From an uncultured Nitrososphaerota archaeon (GTDB lineage: Archaea; Thermoproteota; Nitrososphaeria; Nitrososphaerales; CADDZS01): DNA of 64,000 nucleotides. Of the stretch, positions 6,472 to 51,607 are shown piece after piece; positions within the stretch are counted from its first letter, which is position 1, and every line of letters begins with the position of its first letter. The stretch is from NCBI GenBank assembly GCA_963799845.1, contig CAWCYI010000004.1, positions 288,001 to 352,000 on the forward strand, given 5' to 3'. The notes under the pieces are model-generated. The model had not been told where the DNA came from. It saw only the letters and a program-made list of their open reading frames with translations, and made no database searches. The translations under genes were made by a program, and so were the position numbers.

Positions 6472-7072
6472 CTATTCTTCGTCATCGGATTTTTTCGTCT
6501 TCGCTACCTTTTTCGGTTTCTTGGCATTCGTCTCTTCGTCTGACTTTTTCGGTTTCTTGGCATTCGTCTCTTCGTCTGACTTTTTCGGAGACTTCACTTT
6601 TTCAGAATCTTTTTTCTTCTCTTCTGTGGACTTTCTTACCTTCTTAGGTGCTGGCTTGTCAGTTTCGTCCTTTTTCTTCGATTCTTTCTTTGGCGTTGCC
6701 TTTTCAGTTTCCTTTGGCTTTGCTATCTCAGTCTCCGGTTTCGAGACAATCATGCTTCCCGAGTGGTAATCCGAAGAACTCATAAATCCGGACAAATCGG
6801 CATCGCCGGCAGCCCTTAGAGCAATTACCGAAACACGAAATGGAATTCCGCAAGCCCGCCCCAACTCCACCGAATTGCCGCTGAATTTTAATGCGGGTAC
6901 CGAGAGCTTCCGACACTCATCCAATATCATCTGTGGAACATTCGCCGACGCAGACCATACCAAGAGCTTCGTTCCCTTGATCGCGTTCGGAACCTCACGC
7001 CGGCCAACGATGTAGCTGCCCGTTTTTGCAGCTGAGCTTCAGTTGTTTTTGTAGTTCTACATTTTCCGGCAT
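6472..7072 (-). CDS. rpl30e: 50S ribosomal protein L30e with Lys/Glu-rich C-terminal extension (apparent +1 frameshift at ~7034)
   Basis: Removing one base in AGCTCAGCT joins MPENVELQKQLK to AAKTGSYIVGRREV...GNSVELGRACGIPFRVS; canonical operon position. Confidence 0.88.
6508..6588. repeat. 36-bp tandem repeat (2.25 copies) encoding PKKSDEETNAKK
   Basis: ctttttcggtttcttggcattcgtctcttcgtctga at 6508-6543 and 6544-6579, partial copy to 6588. Confidence 0.9.
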
Positions 7073-16244: not shown

Positions 16245-16526
16245 CTAATCTTTTACACCAACTATTGAATAAACTATCAGAGAAAAGCCAATTACTTCTG
16301 CCCCTGCCTCGATCGTTTCGACGATGGTTAGATCATAGTTCAAAAACTCAAACAAGAGCCCGGCCAAAGCCGCACCGATTGTTACGAACACGAAACCAAG
16401 AGCCAGAAAAAGAAGAGACTTGCTCTTTGTTTTTCTGTAGCCTTTTTGTGAATAATAGACAACAATTATTCCTAGAATCAAAATGGCAATTTGGAAAATG
16501 CGTAACAGGTCGAGAGTTACGGTCAA
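16245..16526 (-). CDS. Small 3-TM membrane protein
   Basis: Three hydrophobic helices; 4 bp downstream of the wHTH gene. Confidence 0.75.
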   Translation of the reverse strand: MTVTLDLLRIFQIAILILGIIVVYYSQKGYRKTKSKSLLFLALGFVFVTIGAALAGLLFEFLNYDLTIVETIEAGAEVIGFSLIVYSIVGVKD

Positions 16527-16530
16527 TTAT

Positions 16531-16887
16531 TTACGCCCTCATTGAAGACCACAATCGCGACAGTCTCGTGGCAACGTCCTCGTTCAGCTCAACGTCCAAC
16601 ACAATCTCGCCCTGATTCAATTGTAATTTTATGCTCCTGAAAGAGCTCCTGTAAAGTTCAAATTTCTTGCCGTCGTCAGTGATGATCGTCTTTTCAACCG
16701 TGAGTAGACCAATATCCCGCATTTCATTTACGCGGCGATACGACGTACTAATCGGAATCTGTTCGGACGCGCTCAGCTCTTCAACCGACCTCGCTCGATC
16801 TATCGTTCCCAAGAGAATCTTCCTCGAATATTCGTCAGCCAGCGCCCTAATCAGCGCGTCGCGGACGTTCTGGCCTGTTATTCTCAT
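16531..16887 (-). CDS. Winged-helix (ArsR-like) transcription regulator, paralog 1
   Basis: LADEYSRKIL..SVEELS...IPISTSYRRVNEM..GLL...DDGKK wHTH. Confidence 0.88.
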   Translation of the reverse strand: MRITGQNVRDALIRALADEYSRKILLGTIDRARSVEELSASEQIPISTSYRRVNEMRDIGLLTVEKTIITDDGKKFELYRSSFRSIKLQLNQGEIVLDVELNEDVATRLSRLWSSMRA

Positions 16888-16956
16888 TTCTTCGACCCGG
16901 CATTGAAAAGACCTAGCTTTCGGAACTTTTTGATTGATCTAATAAGGCAGTACACG

Positions 16957-16974
16957 ATTCTCACGAGTGATAAT
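16957..16974 (-). promoter_or_regulatory. 18-bp regulon palindrome for wHTH/3-TM operon
   Basis: ATTCTCA-cgag-TGATAAT, 11 bp upstream of TTATTAGA on minus strand. Confidence 0.75.
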
Positions 16975-16992
16975 GATCTGAAGGGGTAGAAA

Positions 16993-17008
16993 CCCGAACA
17001 GATTCGGG
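16993..17008. promoter_or_regulatory. Second palindrome CCCGAA-N4-TTCGGG
   Basis: Perfect inverted repeat cccgaa-caga-ttcggg; near-identical copy at 29871. Confidence 0.55.
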
Positions 17009-17021
17009 ATTTTCAAGAGTT

Positions 17022-17039
17022 GCTATCAATTTTGATGAT
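17022..17039 (+). promoter_or_regulatory. 18-bp regulon palindrome for 17096 gene
   Basis: GCTATCA-attt-TGATGAT + CGT, 11 bp to TTTAAGTA. Confidence 0.65.
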
Positions 17040-17095
17040 CGTCTCCCGGCTTTAAGTACCAATGCCCCCCAAATGACTCACAAGTGAAAAACTAA

Positions 17096-17671
17096 ATGCT
17101 AAAGTCTCAAGAACAAACTGTAAAGCAAGTACCCGTAACGACTAGCAGATGGGCAAGCAGATTTACCTGGGCAGCCGTGGTCCAGGGTCTGATCCTAACA
17201 ATCATCACGGTGCTCATCGTGGAGCCGCTCAGCTACTTCGGCATCAATTCGTACTACAGCCCGTCTAAAGTTATAGCGGGAGGCGGAGGAGGAACATGGC
17301 TGTTCACTGGCTACATTCTATATCTTACGGTAGGCGTTATCGCGGTCGCAGTCACTGCAATGTTCTACTTCTTCATCGAAGGAGTCAACGGCAAGGTGTA
17401 CCATGGTCTGACGAACTACCTCGCCTGGGGGCACTATATATTCATGAATGTGGGAGTCGCTGGTTCTATGCTCCTCATGATCTGGGGTGGTTATATGGCA
17501 GGTTATGCCGCAGCTCCAGTTGCCTCGGGAGGCCTGGGTTACACAGATCTACAAATCCACGTGAACTATCTCGGTCAGCTAGTCAACCCAATTGGCGGAT
17601 TCGTCCTTCTGGCAGCAGTCGGTGCAATCCTCGGAGGACTTGGATTCATACTCAGAAGCAGGATGAAGTAA
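17096..17671 (+). CDS. Multi-pass membrane protein of unknown function
   Basis: 4-5 hydrophobic helices; own TATA promoter. Confidence 0.75.
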   Translation: MLKSQEQTVKQVPVTTSRWASRFTWAAVVQGLILTIITVLIVEPLSYFGINSYYSPSKVIAGGGGGTWLFTGYILYLTVGVIAVAVTAMFYFFIEGVNGKVYHGLTNYLAWGHYIFMNVGVAGSMLLMIWGGYMAGYAAAPVASGGLGYTDLQIHVNYLGQLVNPIGGFVLLAAVGAILGGLGFILRSRMK

Positions 17672-24671: not shown

Positions 24672-24689
24672 ATTCTCAGTGTTGGGAAT
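24672..24689 (+). promoter_or_regulatory. 18-bp regulon palindrome for APC-arcB-arcA operon
   Basis: ATTCTCA-gtgt-TGGGAAT + CGT, 11 bp to ATAAATAT. Confidence 0.75.
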
Positions 24690-24744
24690 CGTCTCCATGG
24701 ATAAATATCGTCAGAGTGGTCTTTCAAAGTCAGGTCACTGAGAA

Positions 24745-26334: not shown

Positions 26335-26468
26335 TAAGAAGCCTTCCGCTCGGCGACTCTGCATCCTTCCTCCTTGAATCGATTCTTAGACGAGCCGCCA
26401 AACTGAACAAAGAAATAAAGCAGGAAATGGAGCTCGATTTGTTGAATCGAATGGTGGTCAGTGTATGA
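26331..26468 (+). CDS. 45-aa ORF resembling the OTCase N-terminus
   Basis: MIRSLPLGDSASFLLESILRRAAKLNKEIKQEMELDLLNRMVVSV; ATGA overlaps with both neighbours. Confidence 0.5.
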   Translation: MIRSLPLGDSASFLLESILRRAAKLNKEIKQEMELDLLNRMVVSV

Positions 26469-27388
26469 CTCGATCGTTCCTTTCAGTTTCAGATATCTCT
26501 GCCGTGGAAATGGACGTGATACTAACGCGGACCAGGAGCATCAAGGCGAGCATCAAATCAAGGGAGAAGATTGCAACTCTCGCGGATTACGTTGTATGTC
26601 TTCTGTTCGAAAAGCCCTCAACTAGAACGAGCGCGGCTTTCGAAGTTGCGACCCTCCGGCTTGGGGGCAATCCGCTTTACTTTTCGTCGCAAGAACTTCA
26701 ACTAAGCAGGGGCGAGCCCGTCAAGGACACAGCTAGAGTACTAGGTTCAGATATGGACGGGATAGTGGCGAGAGTATTCGCTCACGATACCGTCAATCAG
26801 CTGTCGATGTATTCTGGGATTCCGGTAATAAACGGTCTGAGCGATTTAGAACACCCGACACAGATCGTATCGGACTTCTTCACCATTCAGGAGGTCAAGG
26901 GCAAGTTGAAAGGATTGAAAATGGCCTACATAGGAGATGGTGACAACGTCTGTAATTCTCTGCTTCTCGGGGCGGCCATGGTCGGAATGAACTTGTCGGT
27001 TGCCTGCCCTATAGGATACGAGCCAAATAGCGAGATCCTGGAAAGAGCTTTGGTGGATGCCAAGATTACAGGATCATCATTAGTTGTCACAAACAGCCCG
27101 AGTGAAGTAGTCAGGGACGCTGATGTCCTCTATACCGATGTCTGGGTGAGCATGGGAGAGGAGGCAGAGCAGGAAAAGCGAATGAAAGCCTTTGTGGGAT
27201 ACCAGATCAACTCTCAACTAATGAAACTGGCGAAAGGCAACGCAGTTGTGATGCACTGTCTCCCGGCACACAGAGGCCTTGAAATCACTGATGACATTAT
27301 CGAGGGAGCCCAGTCAATTGTGTGGCAGCAGGCGGGCAACAAACTTCCCGGCGCTGCTAGCGTTCTAGAATTTTTCCTGAGAAAATAA
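26465..27388 (+). CDS. arcB: Ornithine carbamoyltransferase (catabolic context)
   Basis: FEKPSTRT, HPTQ, DVWVSMG, HCLP. Confidence 0.93.
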   Translation: MTRSFLSVSDISAVEMDVILTRTRSIKASIKSREKIATLADYVVCLLFEKPSTRTSAAFEVATLRLGGNPLYFSSQELQLSRGEPVKDTARVLGSDMDGIVARVFAHDTVNQLSMYSGIPVINGLSDLEHPTQIVSDFFTIQEVKGKLKGLKMAYIGDGDNVCNSLLLGAAMVGMNLSVACPIGYEPNSEILERALVDAKITGSSLVVTNSPSEVVRDADVLYTDVWVSMGEEAEQEKRMKAFVGYQINSQLMKLAKGNAVVMHCLPAHRGLEITDDIIEGAQSIVWQQAGNKLPGAASVLEFFLRK

Positions 27389-27392
27389 ATAA

Positions 27393-28709
27393 GTGAAAAG
27401 GAAATTGGTAGCAAAAATTAGGGCGGAGTTCGATCGACTGAGACGAGTGGCGATTCACAGGCCGGGAATCGAAATGTTCTTCGGCTTGCTGGCGCCAGAA
27501 GCGTCTCTTTACGAGAGAGTGTTCAACAGGTACGGGGCAAGAATGGAGCATGAAAGGCTCGAATATACGCTCAGGCACGAATTCGGAATTGAAGTTTTTC
27601 GAATCAAGGAAAGATTGCTCGAGCTGGCGGACAAAAAACCGGAAATCAGGGACAAATTAGTTGTCGCCGGCCTGAACGATCTCAAGTTCACCGGAGACGA
27701 AAAAACAGTAGCCGAAGCAAAAAAAGAAGTTCAAGAAGGATCTGCAATGTACGACGGTGGCCACTTTTTCAATCTGCTTTTACTCCACCCGACATTGGAC
27801 CTTGAAAAAGGAGGAAAGGCGGCCAGGGCAATTCATCTGGGTGTCACCGAAAATGATCCTCTTGCAAACCTCTATTTCATGAGAGACCAACAGGCTGTAA
27901 CTGACAAAGGGATCTTCCTATCGCGAATGTCGAAACCCCAAAGAGCAGGGGAACCTTCCCTGACCAAGTTCGTATGGCAGGCGTTGGGAGAGCAGATAAT
28001 TCACGAAACCCAATCCCCTGGGACCTTTGAAGGCGGGGATTTCATTCCCATGAAAGATTTCGCCCTCGTCGGCTTCGGAGATAGAACCAACAGAAGCGGA
28101 GTTGATCAGATGCTTGAATTTGGTTTAAATTTTGATGAAGTGGCGGTGGTCCATCAACCCAGCCACCCCCTGATACCCGGAGACGAGATTGATCCGATGA
28201 TCGACATGCACGTCGACACCTACTTTAACATCGCAGGCAGTGGAGTCGCAGTAGGATCTGAACTGTTACTGAAACGGGCTAAAGTCGAAATTTACGACCA
28301 CGAAGGTGAGAATGTTTACAAGAAATCTGAACGCGAAACAAACCTGCATGATTACATCACGAAGAAAGGTTTTGACATCATAAATCTAACCACACTCGAA
28401 CAGCTATGCTATGCTTCAAATTTTCTATGCATAAAAGACGGGCAGATTTTGGCAATTGAAGTTGAAAGAGAAGTAAAAAATGTCCTCAAGACCCTTGCCT
28501 CGCAGGCTGAAGAGAACCCACATCGCTATGGTAGGCTCCTTGACCAAGCCCGAAAGGATTACCAGGACCTTCAGGATTTAGGCGGTTTCTTTCCTCACAA
28601 GAAGGAGATTTACCAACACGGAATAGATGCGTATGCGATCGTCATGACAAACCTGACCGGCGGATATGGGGGAGCGCACTGCATGACGGCGGTGCTAGAA
28701 AGAAATTAG
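27393..28709 (+). CDS. arcA: Arginine deiminase
   Basis: NLYFMRDQ, FEGGD, MHVDT, GGAHCMT amidinotransferase-superfamily motifs; next to OTCase. Confidence 0.9.
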   Translation: MKRKLVAKIRAEFDRLRRVAIHRPGIEMFFGLLAPEASLYERVFNRYGARMEHERLEYTLRHEFGIEVFRIKERLLELADKKPEIRDKLVVAGLNDLKFTGDEKTVAEAKKEVQEGSAMYDGGHFFNLLLLHPTLDLEKGGKAARAIHLGVTENDPLANLYFMRDQQAVTDKGIFLSRMSKPQRAGEPSLTKFVWQALGEQIIHETQSPGTFEGGDFIPMKDFALVGFGDRTNRSGVDQMLEFGLNFDEVAVVHQPSHPLIPGDEIDPMIDMHVDTYFNIAGSGVAVGSELLLKRAKVEIYDHEGENVYKKSERETNLHDYITKKGFDIINLTTLEQLCYASNFLCIKDGQILAIEVEREVKNVLKTLASQAEENPHRYGRLLDQARKDYQDLQDLGGFFPHKKEIYQHGIDAYAIVMTNLTGGYGGAHCMTAVLERN

Positions 28710-28719
28710 CCCCAAGACG

Positions 28720-29196
28720 CTACCTTACGACAAGTACTGAACAGTGCGCATGGGCAATTATCGCGTTAGATACGCTGCCAAGCAGCAGTTTCTTGAAACC
28801 GCCTAAGCCTCTCGTTCCGACAATGAGCAGATTGATTTTCTCATTGGAAGCCTCTTCCAAGATCGTCTCGGCAACAGAGGTAACTGTCCTCAAAACAATC
28901 CCTCTTGCGTTGACGGATTCGTTCTTCGCATCCGCTACAGCGTCATTTACCAATTTCTTCGCGTCATTCTCTGCAAGCTCCAGATAGTTCGAATAATCGA
29001 CTGCAGGAACATTCACTCCGATCGGAGAGAAAACCGGAGGAACCATTTCCGCAACCACGTTCAAGATCAGCAGTTCCGATTGAAACTGCTTTGCAATACT
29101 AATAGCTGCCTTTGCTGCCCTTGTCGCATTTTCCGATCCGTCGATTGAAACGAGGATCTTGCTCAACGGCAATAAATGTGATGATTCGTCTGACAT
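28720..29196 (-). CDS. Universal stress protein
   Basis: KILVSIDGS, GTRGLGGFKKLLLGSVS, CSVLVVR. Confidence 0.93.
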   Translation of the reverse strand: MSDESSHLLPLSKILVSIDGSENATRAAKAAISIAKQFQSELLILNVVAEMVPPVFSPIGVNVPAVDYSNYLELAENDAKKLVNDAVADAKNESVNARGIVLRTVTSVAETILEEASNEKINLLIVGTRGLGGFKKLLLGSVSNAIIAHAHCSVLVVR

Positions 29197-29370: not shown

Positions 29371-29826
29371 TTAAAGAATAGGAGCTATTTTCTGGAGAGC
29401 TGAGGTACCGATCGCTGCCGACTCTTGCAATTTTTCAGGGATTGCTTGGCTAGCTTCTTTCGGTCTCAATGTTGACCAGATGTCACTCAACTTATCCGCT
29501 GGATCTCTATTGGAAACAAGATCTACCTTCAGTTCTCCTGATTCTAGCTGAATAGTCGCGTTCCTGAATGACGACTTGTAACACACGAATTTCTTACCGT
29601 CATCATGAATTATTGTTCTATCCGGTCTGACGATACCGTATTCCAGCATCTCGTGAATCCTTCGATAACAAGTGCTGACAGGAATGTGCTGTTCTTTGCT
29701 GATCTCCTCGATTGGAAGGGAATTTGAGATGATCGTAAGAACAATTTTTCGAGAATATTCGTCCGCGAGTACCTTTATGACTTCAAGGGCCTTTTCCTCG
29801 TCAGAGACGAGCAATGAATGATTCAC
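29371..29826 (-). CDS. Winged-helix (ArsR-like) regulator, paralog 2
   Basis: LADEYSRKI...IPVSTCYRRIHEM...DDGKKF..YKSSFR, closely similar to 16531-16887. Confidence 0.88.
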   Translation of the reverse strand: MNHSLLVSDEEKALEVIKVLADEYSRKIVLTIISNSLPIEEISKEQHIPVSTCYRRIHEMLEYGIVRPDRTIIHDDGKKFVCYKSSFRNATIQLESGELKVDLVSNRDPADKLSDIWSTLRPKEASQAIPEKLQESAAIGTSALQKIAPIL

Positions 29827-29868
29827 TTCCTGTGACTCACATATGGATTCTGCTCGTTATTGGATATA

Positions 29869-29888
29869 ATCCCGAATAGATACGGGAT
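29869..29888. promoter_or_regulatory. Second palindrome upstream of wHTH paralog 2
   Basis: atcccgaa-taga-tacgggat (one mismatch), abutting TTATAT on minus strand. Confidence 0.55.
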
Positions 29889-30045
29889 AGGAGTATTCGA
29901 CCAATCTACATGCAAAGATTTTTTCCGGGTCGAAGTTTAGAACGGAAACTTAAGAGCACTGATTACGACTACGATGAGATGATTCGGTTATACTTACGAT
30001 AGTACTACTGTCGGTTGTTTTGTCGATTTTGACCATCGTCGTGGG

Positions 30046-30678
30046 TTAGGACTTTTCAAAATATCCGGTTATTATCCTTCTTTCCGCCCTTCTCAGGATC
30101 TCGGATGCGGTGCTTGGGGAAATCCCGACTGCTTTGGACAATTCTTCCGTAGAAATACGCTTTGGATAATCATAGTACCCAAGTTCCAGTGCAGATTTCA
30201 TGACGCGCTCCTGCTTGGGAGTCAAAGCCCTAGTTGGGCTCATCTTCGCAATCTCTCCAATCTTGTAGATAACCCCATTCTCGTGCAAAGATTGAAGAAA
30301 ATTTGGAATGCCCTCACCACTCATGAAAAGCTTGTACGTCATCTGGCAATTACTCTCGGTCACGGCAGGGCCGACAAAGTATCCGCTCTGGGATTGCATG
30401 ATCAAAAAGCATACTAGGCAGTCCTTGCTGGTTACTGCGCCTACTAGTCTATTCGGTCCCACGCTCGCAAGATCGCATTCCGTAACATCAGGCAGGTTAC
30501 CCAAATCCTTTCTCAGATGTTCCGCGGTAACTTTCTCGGATGTAATCTCGACAAAGTGAGTGATGTTCCGTTCAGAGTCCTGCGACTTCATACTTAGTAC
30601 CCTTACGATTGCAGAATCATTGCGGCAGATGTTATCGATCCAGCTTTCTGGGTTGACGCTGAACTGTAGCTGGATCAC
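30046..30678 (-). CDS. HTH-10 (Bat/DmsR/NarO-like) transcription regulator with Cys-rich N-domain
   Basis: LTPKQERV...ALELGYYDYPKR...ELS...GISPSTASEILRRAE; five Cys including CLVC in the N-domain. Confidence 0.88.
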   Translation of the reverse strand: MIQLQFSVNPESWIDNICRNDSAIVRVLSMKSQDSERNITHFVEITSEKVTAEHLRKDLGNLPDVTECDLASVGPNRLVGAVTSKDCLVCFLIMQSQSGYFVGPAVTESNCQMTYKLFMSGEGIPNFLQSLHENGVIYKIGEIAKMSPTRALTPKQERVMKSALELGYYDYPKRISTEELSKAVGISPSTASEILRRAERRIITGYFEKS

Positions 30679-30781
30679 AGATGAATGCCTTTGTCACGCG
30701 ATTAAAGAAAATATCGTCTATAACTTTGGAAGAGATAATCTCGGAAACGCTAATAGAGCTAACCGGTCTGGAACCTCCCCT

Positions 30782-31588
30782 GTGCAGATTGGAGAAGCGC
30801 TTCCACAAGTGTTCAGGAGAACGTATCCGATCATTGAACCAACCACACAGCTGTTATTGGCTCTTTCACTCCTGAGATTTCATGAAATTGATGCACTTCC
30901 AATTGGAATCAAAGCGAGTCAGAAAAAGAGGCTCGCCGTGTTCGGCTATTCCTGTCTTTCCTTGCTTCTTAAGACGCCGCCCAAGAACTATGGTAAATTC
31001 CTAGAACTCCCGGCCAAGAAGGCCGCACTCGAACTTGCTACTATCGGCATCAACAAAGACATCTATTCATTGGTTAAGATTTTCAAGAGAACAAGGTTTG
31101 GTTTCGCCTGGGTGGAATCGGAGAAACTGGCAGGATTCGCAAGTCTCAGAGATCTACTCGAGCTTTACGAAAGCGGTGTGTTAGAAACCAGGATGACGCT
31201 TGGTGAATTGGCGTCTCCGATTTTTTCTATGCCCAGGGGCGAAAAAGTCAGAAACGTGTTGAAAGAAATGTTCGACAGACGAATTCGTAGAGTATTCGTT
31301 GAGGGGAAAAAAACCGTCGTTACGGATAGGAGAATCATAGGGTTCCTTTTTAGCACTTCAAGACTAGACAGCACAACAAAGAATCCGGAATCACTACTCG
31401 ACTTCAATTTGGGTGATATCGAACCGCTAGAACCGTTTTTCGTTCGAGGCAGTTCTAGCGTAAAAAAGGGGGCGCAGTCAATTGCCTATCACAGCGAGGA
31501 ATGTCTGATATGTGAGAAAGGAGTCATCACTCCCTGGGATCTAATAATGAAGCCTCTTGCTCTGGGCGCCCTTAAAATCAGGGACTGA
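30782..31588 (+). CDS. Divergent 4xCBS-like protein
   Basis: LASPIFSM..RRIRRVFV, VITPWDL; paralog of 18844-19682; start uncertain (GTG 30782). Confidence 0.75.
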   Translation: MQIGEALPQVFRRTYPIIEPTTQLLLALSLLRFHEIDALPIGIKASQKKRLAVFGYSCLSLLLKTPPKNYGKFLELPAKKAALELATIGINKDIYSLVKIFKRTRFGFAWVESEKLAGFASLRDLLELYESGVLETRMTLGELASPIFSMPRGEKVRNVLKEMFDRRIRRVFVEGKKTVVTDRRIIGFLFSTSRLDSTTKNPESLLDFNLGDIEPLEPFFVRGSSSVKKGAQSIAYHSEECLICEKGVITPWDLIMKPLALGALKIRD

Positions 31589-32126
31589 GTCCGTGGGCTC
31601 CTTTGAGCATCTCTTCTCGAATATGGACGTTATCGATGTGGTTAGAAAGATCTTCTCTATCCTTCAAGATAGAGCCGCAATATGGGCAACGAGCTCCTCT
31701 CGACGGCTCCAGCATCGTTAAGGATATGGAACCTTCTCGAGAATTCCCCACTACTTGACTGAGTGTAATTATCCCGAGCAATCTCGTTCCCTCTTTCACG
31801 ACGAGCCGCCTGTACTTGTTATGAACCATCAGCGAAATTGCCTCCCCTGCTTTCATCTGTGCGGGGACCGACAGTACGGGAGAGGACATTACATCTTTCA
31901 CTGCAGTCTTGCTGGCATCTTTTCCCTGAGCGACTACACGCGAAAGGACATCCCATTCAGTCACTATTCCTACTGGCTCGCCGTTCCTTGTGACTACAAT
32001 TGAACCCGATTTGTGATCTACCATGAGCTTCACTGCGTGGTTCACCGATTCATTTACGTCAACCAGAATCGGAGATTGAACGAACTTCGACACGGGTTCA
32101 TTAATTGCAATATTTATTTCCGACAA
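31578..32126 (-). CDS. CBS-pair protein with C-terminal C2H2 zinc finger
   Basis: CBS pair (GIVTEWD) + CPYC-x12-H-x4-H. Confidence 0.88.
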   Translation of the reverse strand: MSEINIAINEPVSKFVQSPILVDVNESVNHAVKLMVDHKSGSIVVTRNGEPVGIVTEWDVLSRVVAQGKDASKTAVKDVMSSPVLSVPAQMKAGEAISLMVHNKYRRLVVKEGTRLLGIITLSQVVGNSREGSISLTMLEPSRGARCPYCGSILKDREDLSNHIDNVHIREEMLKGAHGLSP

Positions 32127-32137
32127 TTTCTTTTACC

Positions 32138-32578
32138 TTAGGGATTCTGTGCAATTAGTTTTCTTAAATCGTCCGGGATGTTTGGCTCATATGCTACCTT
32201 CACCGCCCATTTGAATAGGTCTCTCTCTGTGACAATCCCCAAGAGCTTTCCGTCTTTTACAACCGGCAGACGTCTTATCCTATTCTTCAACAATATCGCG
32301 AAAGCTTCCCAAAGCGGAGTGTTCAGACTAACCGTTATGACTGAACGTTTTCCTGTTTCTGCCAATTTTCGATCCAAGTAATCGAAGCTCTTCGTTATCT
32401 CCCTCACAATATCTCTCTCGGTAATAATGCCCACAACTTTTCCATCATCTAGAACGACTACAGCTCCGATGTCGTTCTTAACCATCAAGTTGAGCGCGTC
32501 GATTGTTTTATTCTTTGGACTTAAGGTGAAAACTGTTCTGGTCATAACTTCCTTTATCGTGTCTCTGTCTTCGCTCAA
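32138..32578 (-). CDS. CBS-pair protein
   Basis: GIITERD, RRLPVV..GIVTERD. Confidence 0.92.
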   Translation of the reverse strand: MSEDRDTIKEVMTRTVFTLSPKNKTIDALNLMVKNDIGAVVVLDDGKVVGIITERDIVREITKSFDYLDRKLAETGKRSVITVSLNTPLWEAFAILLKNRIRRLPVVKDGKLLGIVTERDLFKWAVKVAYEPNIPDDLRKLIAQNP

Positions 32579-32636
32579 AATTGCATCATCCGCTCAGGGG
32601 TAAAGGAGCAAGTGTCAGTATTTATGGGAGGCTACG

Positions 32637-32654
32637 ATTCCCACGGTTGAGAAC
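32637..32654 (-). promoter_or_regulatory. 18-bp regulon palindrome for CBS/CBS-ZnF operon
   Basis: ATTCCCA-cggt-TGAGAAC; CGT and 11 bp to ATAAATAC on minus strand. Confidence 0.75.
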
Positions 32655-34407: not shown

Positions 34408-34455
34408 TTTGTTTTCAACCTTAATCTAATTTAGACAGAGATAAAGACCGTGACG

Positions 34456-34473
34456 ATTCTCAACGGTGATAAC
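34456..34473 (-). promoter_or_regulatory. 18-bp regulon palindrome for CBS gene
   Basis: ATTCTCA-acgg-TGATAAC; CGT and 10 bp to TTTATCT on minus strand. Confidence 0.75.
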
Positions 34474-34701
34474 GAAGTCTCAAAGTTCCGAATACGAATT
34501 CAGATTCGGAGAACATCGATTGTAGATTGGCGGTTGAATTGTTGATATTTCTACGTTTGTAGCAGACGTGATAAATCAACTAGAAATAATTGAATTCGCA
34601 AGATTATGTTACAGAACCATTTCTTTAAGGGCAAAGAGTCGTGCAAGAATAGCATAAGGGAATTATTTCATAAAAACCTCTAGGGCCTGGTTTGTAATAA
34701 A

Positions 34702-42243: not shown

Positions 42244-42284
42244 AGACGAAGTCGCTTAGTCTTAGTCTCATAAACTCTAAGACG

Positions 42285-42302
42285 ATTCTCAAAAATGATA
42301 AT
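42285..42302 (-). promoter_or_regulatory. 18-bp regulon palindrome for beta-helix/Rieske/cyt b operon
   Basis: ATTCTCA-aaaa-TGATAAT; CGT and 10 bp to TTTATGA on minus strand. Confidence 0.78.
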
Positions 42303-42345
42303 GAACAGGATAACCCTCCTCAGCAATTCTGAGAGTCTGGAATGC

Positions 42346-51595: not shown

Positions 51596-51607
51596 CGAAT
51601 ATGTTCG
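51596..51607. promoter_or_regulatory. CGAA-N4-TTCG palindrome upstream of ppk2
   Basis: cgaa-tatg-ttcg, 16 bp before TTTTATTT. Confidence 0.4.

Follow-up and report, generated by a model that had tools for sequence, protein, structure and literature searches.

An extended CGAA-N4-TTCG palindrome, a cysteine-bearing HTH_10 protein and a candidate NarO-like circuit in a Nitrososphaerales archaeon

Introduction

Is there a regulatory circuit like that of the haloarchaeal regulator NarO outside the haloarchaea? The question is raised by a stretch of 64,000 nucleotides (nt) from an uncultured Nitrososphaerota archaeon of the order Nitrososphaerales (assembly GCA_963799845.1, contig CAWCYI010000004.1), hereafter the window, which corresponds to G000:C4:288001-352000 when the studied genome is designated G000 and the genomes and loci of its relatives Gnnn and Lnnn. 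In the window, a gene for a small winged helix-turn-helix protein (wHTH2) lies directly downstream of a gene for an HTH_10 regulator and is preceded by a palindrome. The initial annotation had read this arrangement as a cascade, leading from a Cys-rich, redox-sensing HTH_10 protein, through CGAA-N4-TTCG boxes placed before wHTH2 and its paralog wHTH1, to a regulon marked by an 18-bp box; a third CGAA-N4-TTCG box had been noted before ppk2. Our results indicate that the observation is real and partly support the existence of a NarO-like circuit outside haloarchaea: a Cys-bearing HTH_10 protein is linked to a palindrome with a CGAA-N4-TTCG core, of which wHTH2 is a conserved target, whereas the short motif as such, the ppk2 site and the assignment of a box to wHTH1 did not hold.

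Hattori et al. reportedly described NarO in 2016 as the HTH_10 regulator of the nar, nir and dms genes of H. volcanii, with an N-terminal four-Cys motif, CXnCXCX7C, and a dependence on cysteine. According to the excerpts available of the papers cited here and below, CGAA-X4-TTCG occurs in denitrification promoters of H. volcanii and is essential for the activation of nirK (PMC5746218), and the H. mediterranei motif, CGAAYATDKTYG, was tested by mutagenesis (PMC10062603). In another study, NarO is termed an oxygen sensor, DUF2249 genes are included in the denitrification set and an HTH_10 gene from the nirK-nor cluster of H. mediterranei, E6P09_00735, is proposed as a candidate denitrification regulator (PMC11218638). 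The background given in the initial annotation, with NarO as an anoxia activator and CGAA-N4-TTCG in NarO-controlled promoters, agrees with these sources (PMC5746218, PMC10062603, PMC11218638).

Results

A 20-bp palindrome and its conservation

The features of the window on which this part of the analysis rests are as follows (lengths of proteins in amino acids, aa).

30046..30678, minus strand: HTH_10 regulator, 210 aa, Pfam PF04967, with an N-terminal alpha/beta domain and a C-terminal HTH_10 domain
29371..29826, minus strand: wHTH paralog 2 (wHTH2), small winged-helix protein of 151 aa, directly downstream of the HTH_10 gene
29869..29888, no strand: box 2, 20-bp palindrome ATCCCGAATAGATACGGGAT, 42-43 nt ahead of the start codon of wHTH2
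29856..29868, minus strand: TATA-like A/T-rich stretch TATATCCAATAAC (gene orientation), directly downstream of box 2
29833..29845, minus strand: conserved element catatgtgagtca, between the TATA-like stretch and the wHTH2 start codon
16991..17010, no strand: box 1, 20-bp palindrome AACCCGAACAGATTCGGGAT, intergenic between the divergent wHTH1 and membrane protein genes
51596..51607, no strand: CGAATATGTTCG before ppk2, minimal match only

The three palindromes originally reported are where they were said to be, with CCCGAACAGATTCGGG at 16993-17008, ATCCCGAATAGATACGGGAT at 29869-29888 and CGAATATGTTCG at 51596-51607. Their common definition as CGAA-N4-TTCG is too short to be informative, and shows no enrichment over chance in either the window or the genome: there are 5 sites in the window against 2.62 expected, a number that 10 of 100 shuffles reach, and 38 of the 198 sites in the genome (19%) are non-coding, in a genome that is itself 20% non-coding according to a crude mask of open reading frames (ORFs). 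Box 2 even departs from the strict pattern, with TACG in place of TTCG. The ppk2 site lacks the CCC/GGG flanks seen in the longer elements and is not found among the sites with up to three mismatches to the long consensus; since the flanks are lacking and non-coding DNA shows no excess of the minimal motif, it is at chance level and probably a chance match.

Boxes 1 and 2 have more in common than this core (CCCGAAYAGATWCGGGAT), and scanning of the genome yielded a family of 20-bp palindromes, ATCCCGAA-N4-TTCGGGAT. It is this longer element, ATCCC[G/T]AA-N4-TT[C/A]GGGAT, that occurs above chance. G000 contains four sites with no more than one mismatch to ATCCCGAANNNNTTCGGGAT, vs none in each of five third-order Markov genomes, and nine with two mismatches, vs 0-4 in the simulated genomes; box 2 differs from the consensus by one mismatch. 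If G/T and C/A are allowed at the two variable positions, 16 sites show up to two mismatches, 14 of them in intergenic positions of a genome with around 80% coding DNA; with three mismatches, the intergenic share (17 of 83 sites) is that of the background. The consensus was built from the sites themselves and, therefore, independent checks are provided by the intergenic bias and by other genomes. For the latter, we surveyed 41 genomes of the same order; the tallies include the unpublished genome G001, on which no claim rests. The exact pattern CCCKAANNNNTTMGGG occurs 47 times in these genomes, vs 17 for the reversed pattern. Exact boxes in G027 and at G021:C66 were set aside as chance matches, being inside genes for a ribosomal protein, Rad51 and similar products. 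The 20-bp palindrome is thus a real element.

Conservation in orthologous promoters, on which the initial annotation had made its proposal depend, was found for wHTH2. The box is present before wHTH2-type genes of seven genomes (G000, G002, G004, G006, G007, G009 and G011), ending 38-45 nt before the start codon at 7 of the 10 loci in the family. It stays with wHTH2 in G002, where the HTH_10 orthologue sits on a different contig, and in G007, where the HTH_10 gene is convergent with wHTH2, and these data support wHTH2 as a conserved target of the 20-bp box. Orthologous wHTH2 promoters keep CAATAA or CATAAG at the TATA-like position, which is compatible with a TATA role for the stretch at 29856..29868, and such an A/T-rich stretch starts 3-8 nt past the box in most of the G000 targets. 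Closer to the gene, catatgtgagtca is nearly identical among the promoters of G000, G002 and G004, the closest three, and may mark the region of transcription start or serve as a second operator.

As annotated, the two wHTH genes are paralogs, with 49% identity over 107 aa. This paralogy, together with the chance-level frequency of the minimal CGAA-N4-TTCG, would be in line with the palindromes being a by-product of duplication, or a chance similarity, with no regulatory role. We consider this extremely improbable, because the palindromes lie at different distances from the wHTH genes (43 vs 104 nt), box 1 tracks another gene (see below) and the 20-mer recurs at unrelated promoters, almost exclusively in intergenic positions, and is conserved across genomes and phyla.

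The predicted regulon

In G000, the box precedes a NirK-like multicopper gene (G000:C4:1282083-1283468), accompanied by a divergent hemerythrin gene and then by a second HTH_10 paralog with a CxxC pair. The best NCBIfam match of the NirK-like product is TIGR02376, with E 2e-54 and 185 bits vs an equivalog cut-off of 296, and its Pfam content comprises Cu-oxidase_2 and Cu-oxidase_3 plus a cupredoxin domain. Other targets in the genome are an AhpC/TSA peroxiredoxin, a hemerythrin and cupin pair, a class-III aminotransferase and, with two boxes, an operon in which Rieske and cytochrome b genes accompany those of four uncharacterised membrane proteins; boxes also precede two copies of a gene for a 191-aa membrane protein, and wHTH2. 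In the relatives, the genes flanking the box encode DUF2249-cupin, Fe-S assembly, hemerythrin, DUF438-hemerythrin, NnrS, CopD and CMD (AhpD-like) proteins, as well as ferredoxin, ferritin, molybdopterin oxidoreductase, radical SAM, NDH-2, Usp (universal stress protein) and Hsp20.

Such gene content is typical of regulons for nitric oxide (NO), nitrosative or low-oxygen stress, like those of the bacterial NsrR, NnrR and DNR, and the kinds of target in common with bacterial NO regulons are nirK, nnrS, hemerythrin-like, and DUF2249 or cupin genes. In these bacterial regulons, too, a palindromic operator adjoins the regulator gene. They differ in relying on unrelated regulator families (Rrf2, CRP/FNR) and on the bacterial transcription machinery, and the resemblance is functional and does not imply membership. 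A reconstruction of the NO and nitrosative stress regulons of the three regulators has been published (PMC1274295).

We also found two paralogous small proteins of 105 and 121 aa with no Pfam family (G000:C4:1286014-1286331 and G000:C3:31030-31395), one of them encoded near the nirK/HTH_10 locus and the other preceded by a weaker box (TACCCGTATTGATTCGGGAG).

The HTH_10 protein

The gene directly upstream of wHTH2 does encode an HTH_10 protein (PF04967, E 2.3e-21, 75.8 bits vs a cut-off of 23.1, residues 152-204), and all 20 aligned relatives match the HTH_10 profile. Relatives of the protein are present in 25 of the 41 genomes surveyed, and relatives of the wHTH in 29. The translation also contains the five cysteines originally counted, C18, C68, C87, C90 and C111, with a CxxC pair formed by C87-x-x-C90. 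These residues are very unequally conserved among 81 members of the family: C87 is present in 76 and C90 in 78, C18 and C111 are limited to a close subgroup (13 and 11 members, respectively) and C68 is not conserved; many members from Thermoplasmata have two cysteines only. Judged from this alignment, the CxxC is the hallmark of the family.

In an AlphaFold (AF2) model, with a predicted local distance difference test (pLDDT) score of 87.4, the CxxC is placed where strand 77-85 ends and helix 88-95 begins. The N-terminal domain (residues 1-146) matches no Pfam family, and 26 representatives were retrieved with E 1e-3 or better in phmmer searches using this domain alone. Its best structural match is Ta1207 from Thermoplasma acidophilum (PDB 5m86; Z 10.5, root mean square deviation (rmsd) 3.5 A over 135 residues, Foldseek probability 1.00). 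Despite this structural likeness to residues 1-146 of the model, the sequence identity is 6-16%, and searching the PDB by sequence with the family profile gave nothing below E 0.36 and did not recover Ta1207. We know of no function for Ta1207, and no paper on Ta1207 or 5M86 was found in the literature searched. For the C-terminal part, the resemblance is to sigma region 4 and LuxR-type HTH domains (Z 7-7.8).

Several other candidates were rejected. DapE, YajQ and other top Foldseek ranks were dismissed because of TM scores below 0.27 and rmsd values above 11 A, and EnfR (8hno), which is assigned to the Tfx family in the excerpt available (PMC10570040), matches the HTH part only. The protein is not placed in the Bat family either: neither the window protein nor, at E 0.1, any of the 20 aligned relatives showed a match to PAS, GAF or BAT, and leads from Protein Atlas to BAT-like N-terminal domains all score below 0.9.

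Comparison with NarO and haloarchaeal systems

The gene used for comparison was that annotated as narO on Haloferax volcanii pHV3. Both proteins have approximately 210 aa, with a Cys-bearing N-terminal domain and a C-terminal HTH_10 domain, but the alignment with NarO that the initial annotation had called for does not support orthology. Similarity is limited to the HTH domain (33% over 52 aa, E 1e-9): the BLASTP alignment covers residues 152-203, with no significance for N-terminal segments, and hhalign, with a probability of 97.5%, aligned the C-terminal 120 columns only. NarO has the layout C..CxC..x7..C (CAC and then C after 7 residues) instead of C18, C87-x-x-C90 and C111, an analogous layout with another motif, and its recognition helix reads TEHLSAAQ instead of SEILRRAE. 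The hosts also differ, Halobacteria vs Nitrososphaerales.

The operators are closer. Both systems have an associated palindrome, with the core CGAA-N4-TTCG being located in haloarchaea before respiratory and denitrification genes that include nirK, according to the excerpts available (PMC5746218, PMC10062603). The core of the 20-bp box, C[G/T]AA-N4-TT[C/A]G, is as in the NarO target promoters, although the box of the window has additional conserved flanks, ATCCC/GGGAT. The narO gene itself is preceded, at 39 nt, by an exact box.

Other haloarchaeal proteins are full-length homologues of the window protein. It shows 30% identity over 205 aa (E 2e-22) with an HTH_10 protein from Haloprofundus, and haloarchaeal homologues cover 97-98% of its length in tblastn. 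On the Haloprofundus plasmid pMHR1-2, the HTH_10 gene adjoins genes for DUF2249, a redoxin and a wHTH plus DUF7521 pair, just as wHTH1 is paired with DUF7521 in the window. On pHl5678-2 from Haloferax larsenii, the HTH_10 homologue is encoded between norB and nirK, adjoining a small HTH_20 wHTH gene; this locus of 14.6 kb contains eight exact CGAA-N4-TTCG boxes, some with CCC/GGG flanks. Genes for DUF2249, copper proteins and NirK are among the neighbours of these haloarchaeal HTH_10 genes. The small HTH_20 genes found beside haloarchaeal HTH_10 genes have products that are 28% identical to wHTH1 over the full length. HTH_20 (PF12840) scores are 42.6 and 45.3 bits for the haloarchaeal wHTH homologues, and 26.0 and 19.3 bits for wHTH1 and wHTH2, vs a cut-off of 27; the latter also has weak Pfam matches to HTH_24 and IclR, every one under cut-off. 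The haloarchaeal HTH_10 homologues differ from the window protein in having no CxxC and, in one case, in matching the Pfam BAT domain, to which the window protein shows no match.

The window protein therefore shares with the HTH_10 subfamily of the haloarchaeal nirK-norB clusters both full-length homology and a neighbouring small winged-helix gene, and the members of this subfamily are probably the counterpart of E6P09_00735. Because homologues of both the HTH_10 protein and the wHTH are found side by side in box-bearing nirK-norB clusters, the resemblance to the haloarchaeal NarO circuit can be attributed to homology. These comparisons indicate that the circuit is related to the NarO-type system and would work in a similar manner, and that the window protein is not a NarO orthologue.

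Which protein binds the palindrome

We assembled 80 public loci (480 kb) from Nitrososphaerales, Thermoplasmata, Methanomassiliicoccales and one Thermoprotei, picked only for encoding an HTH_10 relative, and looked for boxes with at most one mismatch in 12 positions and for wHTH genes within 3 kb. There were 29 boxes in 23 loci, vs two for the reversed control; 18 of the 23 box-bearing loci had no wHTH match, and a wHTH was present in only 6 of the 80. The box is often situated directly after the HTH_10 stop codon, ahead of a hemerythrin, NnrS or DUF2249 gene. In the related genomes, 12 of the 47 exact boxes are within 5 kb of an HTH_10 match. Only two of the eight HTH_10 genes in G000 combine the CxxC domain with the SEILRRAE helix, and both are less than 1 kb from a box. 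The HTH_10 protein is favoured over the wHTH as the binder because of this proximity, the excess of boxes in the 80 loci in the absence of a wHTH, and the location of the two CxxC paralogs near boxes. From these genomic associations, the product of 30046-30678 is a reasonably likely candidate binder of the 20-bp palindrome.

In the mechanism that we propose, ATCCC[G/T]AA-N4-TT[C/A]GGGAT would be the operator of a redox or nitric-oxide stress regulon, on which the HTH_10 protein would act as a dimer, each recognition helix (S-T-x-S-E-I-L-R-R-A-E) contacting one half-site. The N-terminal domain, with its CxxC and two more cysteines in the subgroup, would sense oxygen, NO or thiol redox state, either through a metal or Fe-S centre, in which case an Fe-S cluster could lie between the subunits, or through a disulphide. 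From a box placed 3-8 nt ahead of the TATA-like stretch, the protein would control transcription, probably as an activator, a sign that we infer because the haloarchaeal palindrome is needed for activation. Being itself a target of the box, wHTH2 would be a second-tier regulator or a feedback partner. Binder, signal and sign of regulation all have this predicted status.

Could wHTH2 itself bind the palindrome, autoregulate and control the same stress genes, with the HTH_10 protein being a neighbour with another operator, or a partner? Small winged-helix regulators commonly autoregulate, and the spacing of the box before wHTH2-type genes is fixed in seven genomes, including G002 with its HTH_10 orthologue on another contig; in addition, the box-rich nirK-norB cluster of haloarchaea likewise has a conserved wHTH at its side, and one of the boxes falls between this wHTH gene and nirK. 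However, most box-bearing HTH_10 loci have no wHTH match within 3 kb (18 of the 23 mentioned above), and the wHTH homologues of the distant families G028, G029, G030 and G039, in which boxes lie beside HTH_10 genes, have box-free promoters. The occurrence of a different conserved palindrome in wHTH1-type promoters (see below) further suggests that the wHTH family reads another type of site, and we regard binding by wHTH2 as rather unlikely.

The two proteins could also be a conserved pair acting at or near the same promoters, the HTH_10 protein as sensor and activator and the wHTH as an induced co-regulator or feedback repressor, perhaps in direct contact with each other, in a loop and not in a linear cascade. 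The pair does recur in tandem, convergent and divergent arrangements (G000, G004, G006, G007, G009, G010 and G011), and also in two haloarchaeal plasmids, and the element catatgtgagtca, conserved downstream of the TATA-like stretch in wHTH2 promoters, would suit joint action. This reading has little probability in our view, because most HTH_10 loci outside this family (74 of 80) have no wHTH neighbour.

Several points weigh against binding, sensing and activation by the HTH_10 protein, the reading that we prefer. No box was found within 3 kb at 57 of the 80 HTH_10 loci, in the promoter of the window's own HTH_10 gene, or at L043, L047 and the second L004 copy, all three of them wHTH2-type loci of the family. 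Likewise, the wHTH is also kept beside the HTH_10 gene in both lineages and, therefore, linkage alone cannot fully separate the two candidates; nor did we find covariation between helix and G-type or T-type boxes, because the recognition helices of both families are well conserved, that of the HTH_10 family being nearly invariant. As to the signal, two cysteines only are invariant, which leaves the cofactor as a guess, and the closest haloarchaeal homologues have no CxxC, so that sensing through cysteines does not extend to the clade as a whole. Finally, the box abuts or overlaps the expected transcription factor B recognition element (BRE), a position also compatible with repression.

The wHTH1 region

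The box located near wHTH1 lies among the following features.

16531..16887, minus strand: wHTH paralog 1 (wHTH1), 118 aa, with the DUF7521 gene coming next
16245..16526, minus strand: DUF7521 small membrane protein, Pfam PF24365, E 2.5e-19, after wHTH1
17096..17671, plus strand: 191-aa membrane protein, likely target of box 1, divergent from wHTH1
16956..16975, no strand: second palindrome GATTCTCA-CGAG-TGATAATG, in the wHTH1 promoter

Box 1 had been proposed as an element of wHTH1, but it tracks the divergent gene for the 191-aa membrane protein instead. It is 104 nt from wHTH1 and 85 nt from the membrane gene, and a box lies 84-88 nt before membrane-gene homologues at five loci (the window, G000:C8, G003, G004:C253, with three mismatches, and G007:C65:9655), as well as 45 nt before the homologue at G011:C61. 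No wHTH match occurs near G000:C8, G004:C253 or G007:C65:9655, and there is no such box before the wHTH1 orthologues of the sister genus. Because the spacing of approximately 85 nt to the membrane gene is fixed, we assign box 1 mainly to this gene. Overall, 6 of 31 membrane-gene loci bear a box, all in one family.

The 191-aa protein, with no Pfam or NCBIfam match, is encoded in three copies in G000 (C4, C8 and C3) and has homologues in 26 of the 41 relatives. Genes of the wHTH1 type and for the 191-aa membrane protein are adjacent in several families of the order (window 16531-17671; G020:C1:120249-121244; G035:C84:22622-23603; G028:C180:1436-2442; G009:C12:8249-9576). The DUF7521 gene that follows wHTH1 is a member of PF24365 (69.8 bits vs a cut-off of 27).

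A different palindrome, GATTCTCA-N4-TGAGAATC, is found with up to three mismatches 64-71 nt upstream of wHTH1-type genes at four of nine loci (G000, G003, G007 and G028). None of six wHTH2-type promoters has it at this distance, and one shows a match with three mismatches 118 nt upstream. This second palindrome is probably the 18-bp box of the initial annotation, and may be the operator of the wHTH family. Similar sites occur in the window at 34441-34476 and 42270-42305, and the family is also represented at 24673-24707 and 32619-32653; the left arm is often a degenerate ATTATCA that overlaps a TATA-like stretch. The sequence TKAGAATCGT has 45 sites in the genome, 14 of them intergenic.

Other features of the locus and genome

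A Usp gene (Pfam E 2e-29) is directly downstream of wHTH2, and Usp genes also adjoin the HTH_10/wHTH2 pair in G007 and G011. The wHTH2 orthologues of the sister genus, L005:2140-2769 (G007) and L053:1501-2082 (G011), have a C-terminal extension of around 60-80 aa containing four cysteines in two CxxC pairs, with the look of a zinc ribbon, which is absent from wHTH2 of the window. ORFs resembling ornithine carbamoyltransferase and arginine deiminase, as judged from translations only, lie within 26465-29196. A long plus-strand ORF with a weak CBS match (30560-31588) shares 119 nt with the 5' end of the HTH_10 gene, and its true start is probably further downstream; three further CBS-domain genes are found at 31578-32578. 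Within a minus-strand ORF, positions 6508-6579 are a perfect 36-nt tandem duplication with two identical copies.

The G000 assembly has 4.6 Mb in nine contigs, with 47% G+C, and the sequencing runs nearest to the window are soil metagenomes; no RNA run was listed for the locus. It is 86.7% complete with 4.87% contamination, and its size compares with 1.4-3.7 Mb in relatives. Near-identical stretches occur on separate contigs (G000:C7:10153 and G000:C8:6447; G000:C2:29926 and C3:866), and the assembly may contain duplicated regions or more than one strain. The gene amoA (PF12942) was not found in this 86.7%-complete genome, a result that is uninformative since control genomes were equally silent.

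Discussion

The circuit described here has its DNA-binding family, core operator and partner gene in common with haloarchaea. The new aspects are a different, undescribed sensor domain, its presence in new phyla and a nirK-like target in the phylum of ammonia oxidisers; in the literature searched, we found no earlier description of this regulator family, box or regulon outside haloarchaea. The haloarchaeal NarO-type denitrification box, until now a speciality of halophiles, is in this way tied to a wider archaeal family, and the small wHTH, accompanied or not by DUF7521, emerges as a conserved partner that the available excerpts of the haloarchaeal denitrification work do not examine. If the CxxC domain is a redox or NO sensor, it would be a new sensor domain without a Pfam family.

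As a tentative generalization, on which we would not yet count, a single ancient archaeal module of sensor and operator might govern oxygen and NO stress genes, together with nitrite reductase genes, in Nitrososphaerota, Thermoplasmatota and Halobacteriota. In the same tentative generalization, the module would consist of a CxxC HTH_10 protein, the 20-bp ATCCCKAA-N4-TTMGGGAT and a partnered small winged-helix protein, often followed by DUF7521. If this were true, one derived branch of an ancient module would be represented by NarO and the denitrification box of haloarchaea, and the wHTH would act in feedback, as an induced partner, and not simply as the next tier down. Hardly any regulators are known from the phylum of ammonia oxidisers, and the module would then supply the first one predicted to control nirK there.

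The transcription factors and operators of Nitrososphaerota, their control of nirK and how they cope with NO or low oxygen are almost uncharted. This locus offers a testable set in a single genome, composed of a regulator, an exact operator sequence and around a dozen target promoters, all of which recur in Thermoplasmata.

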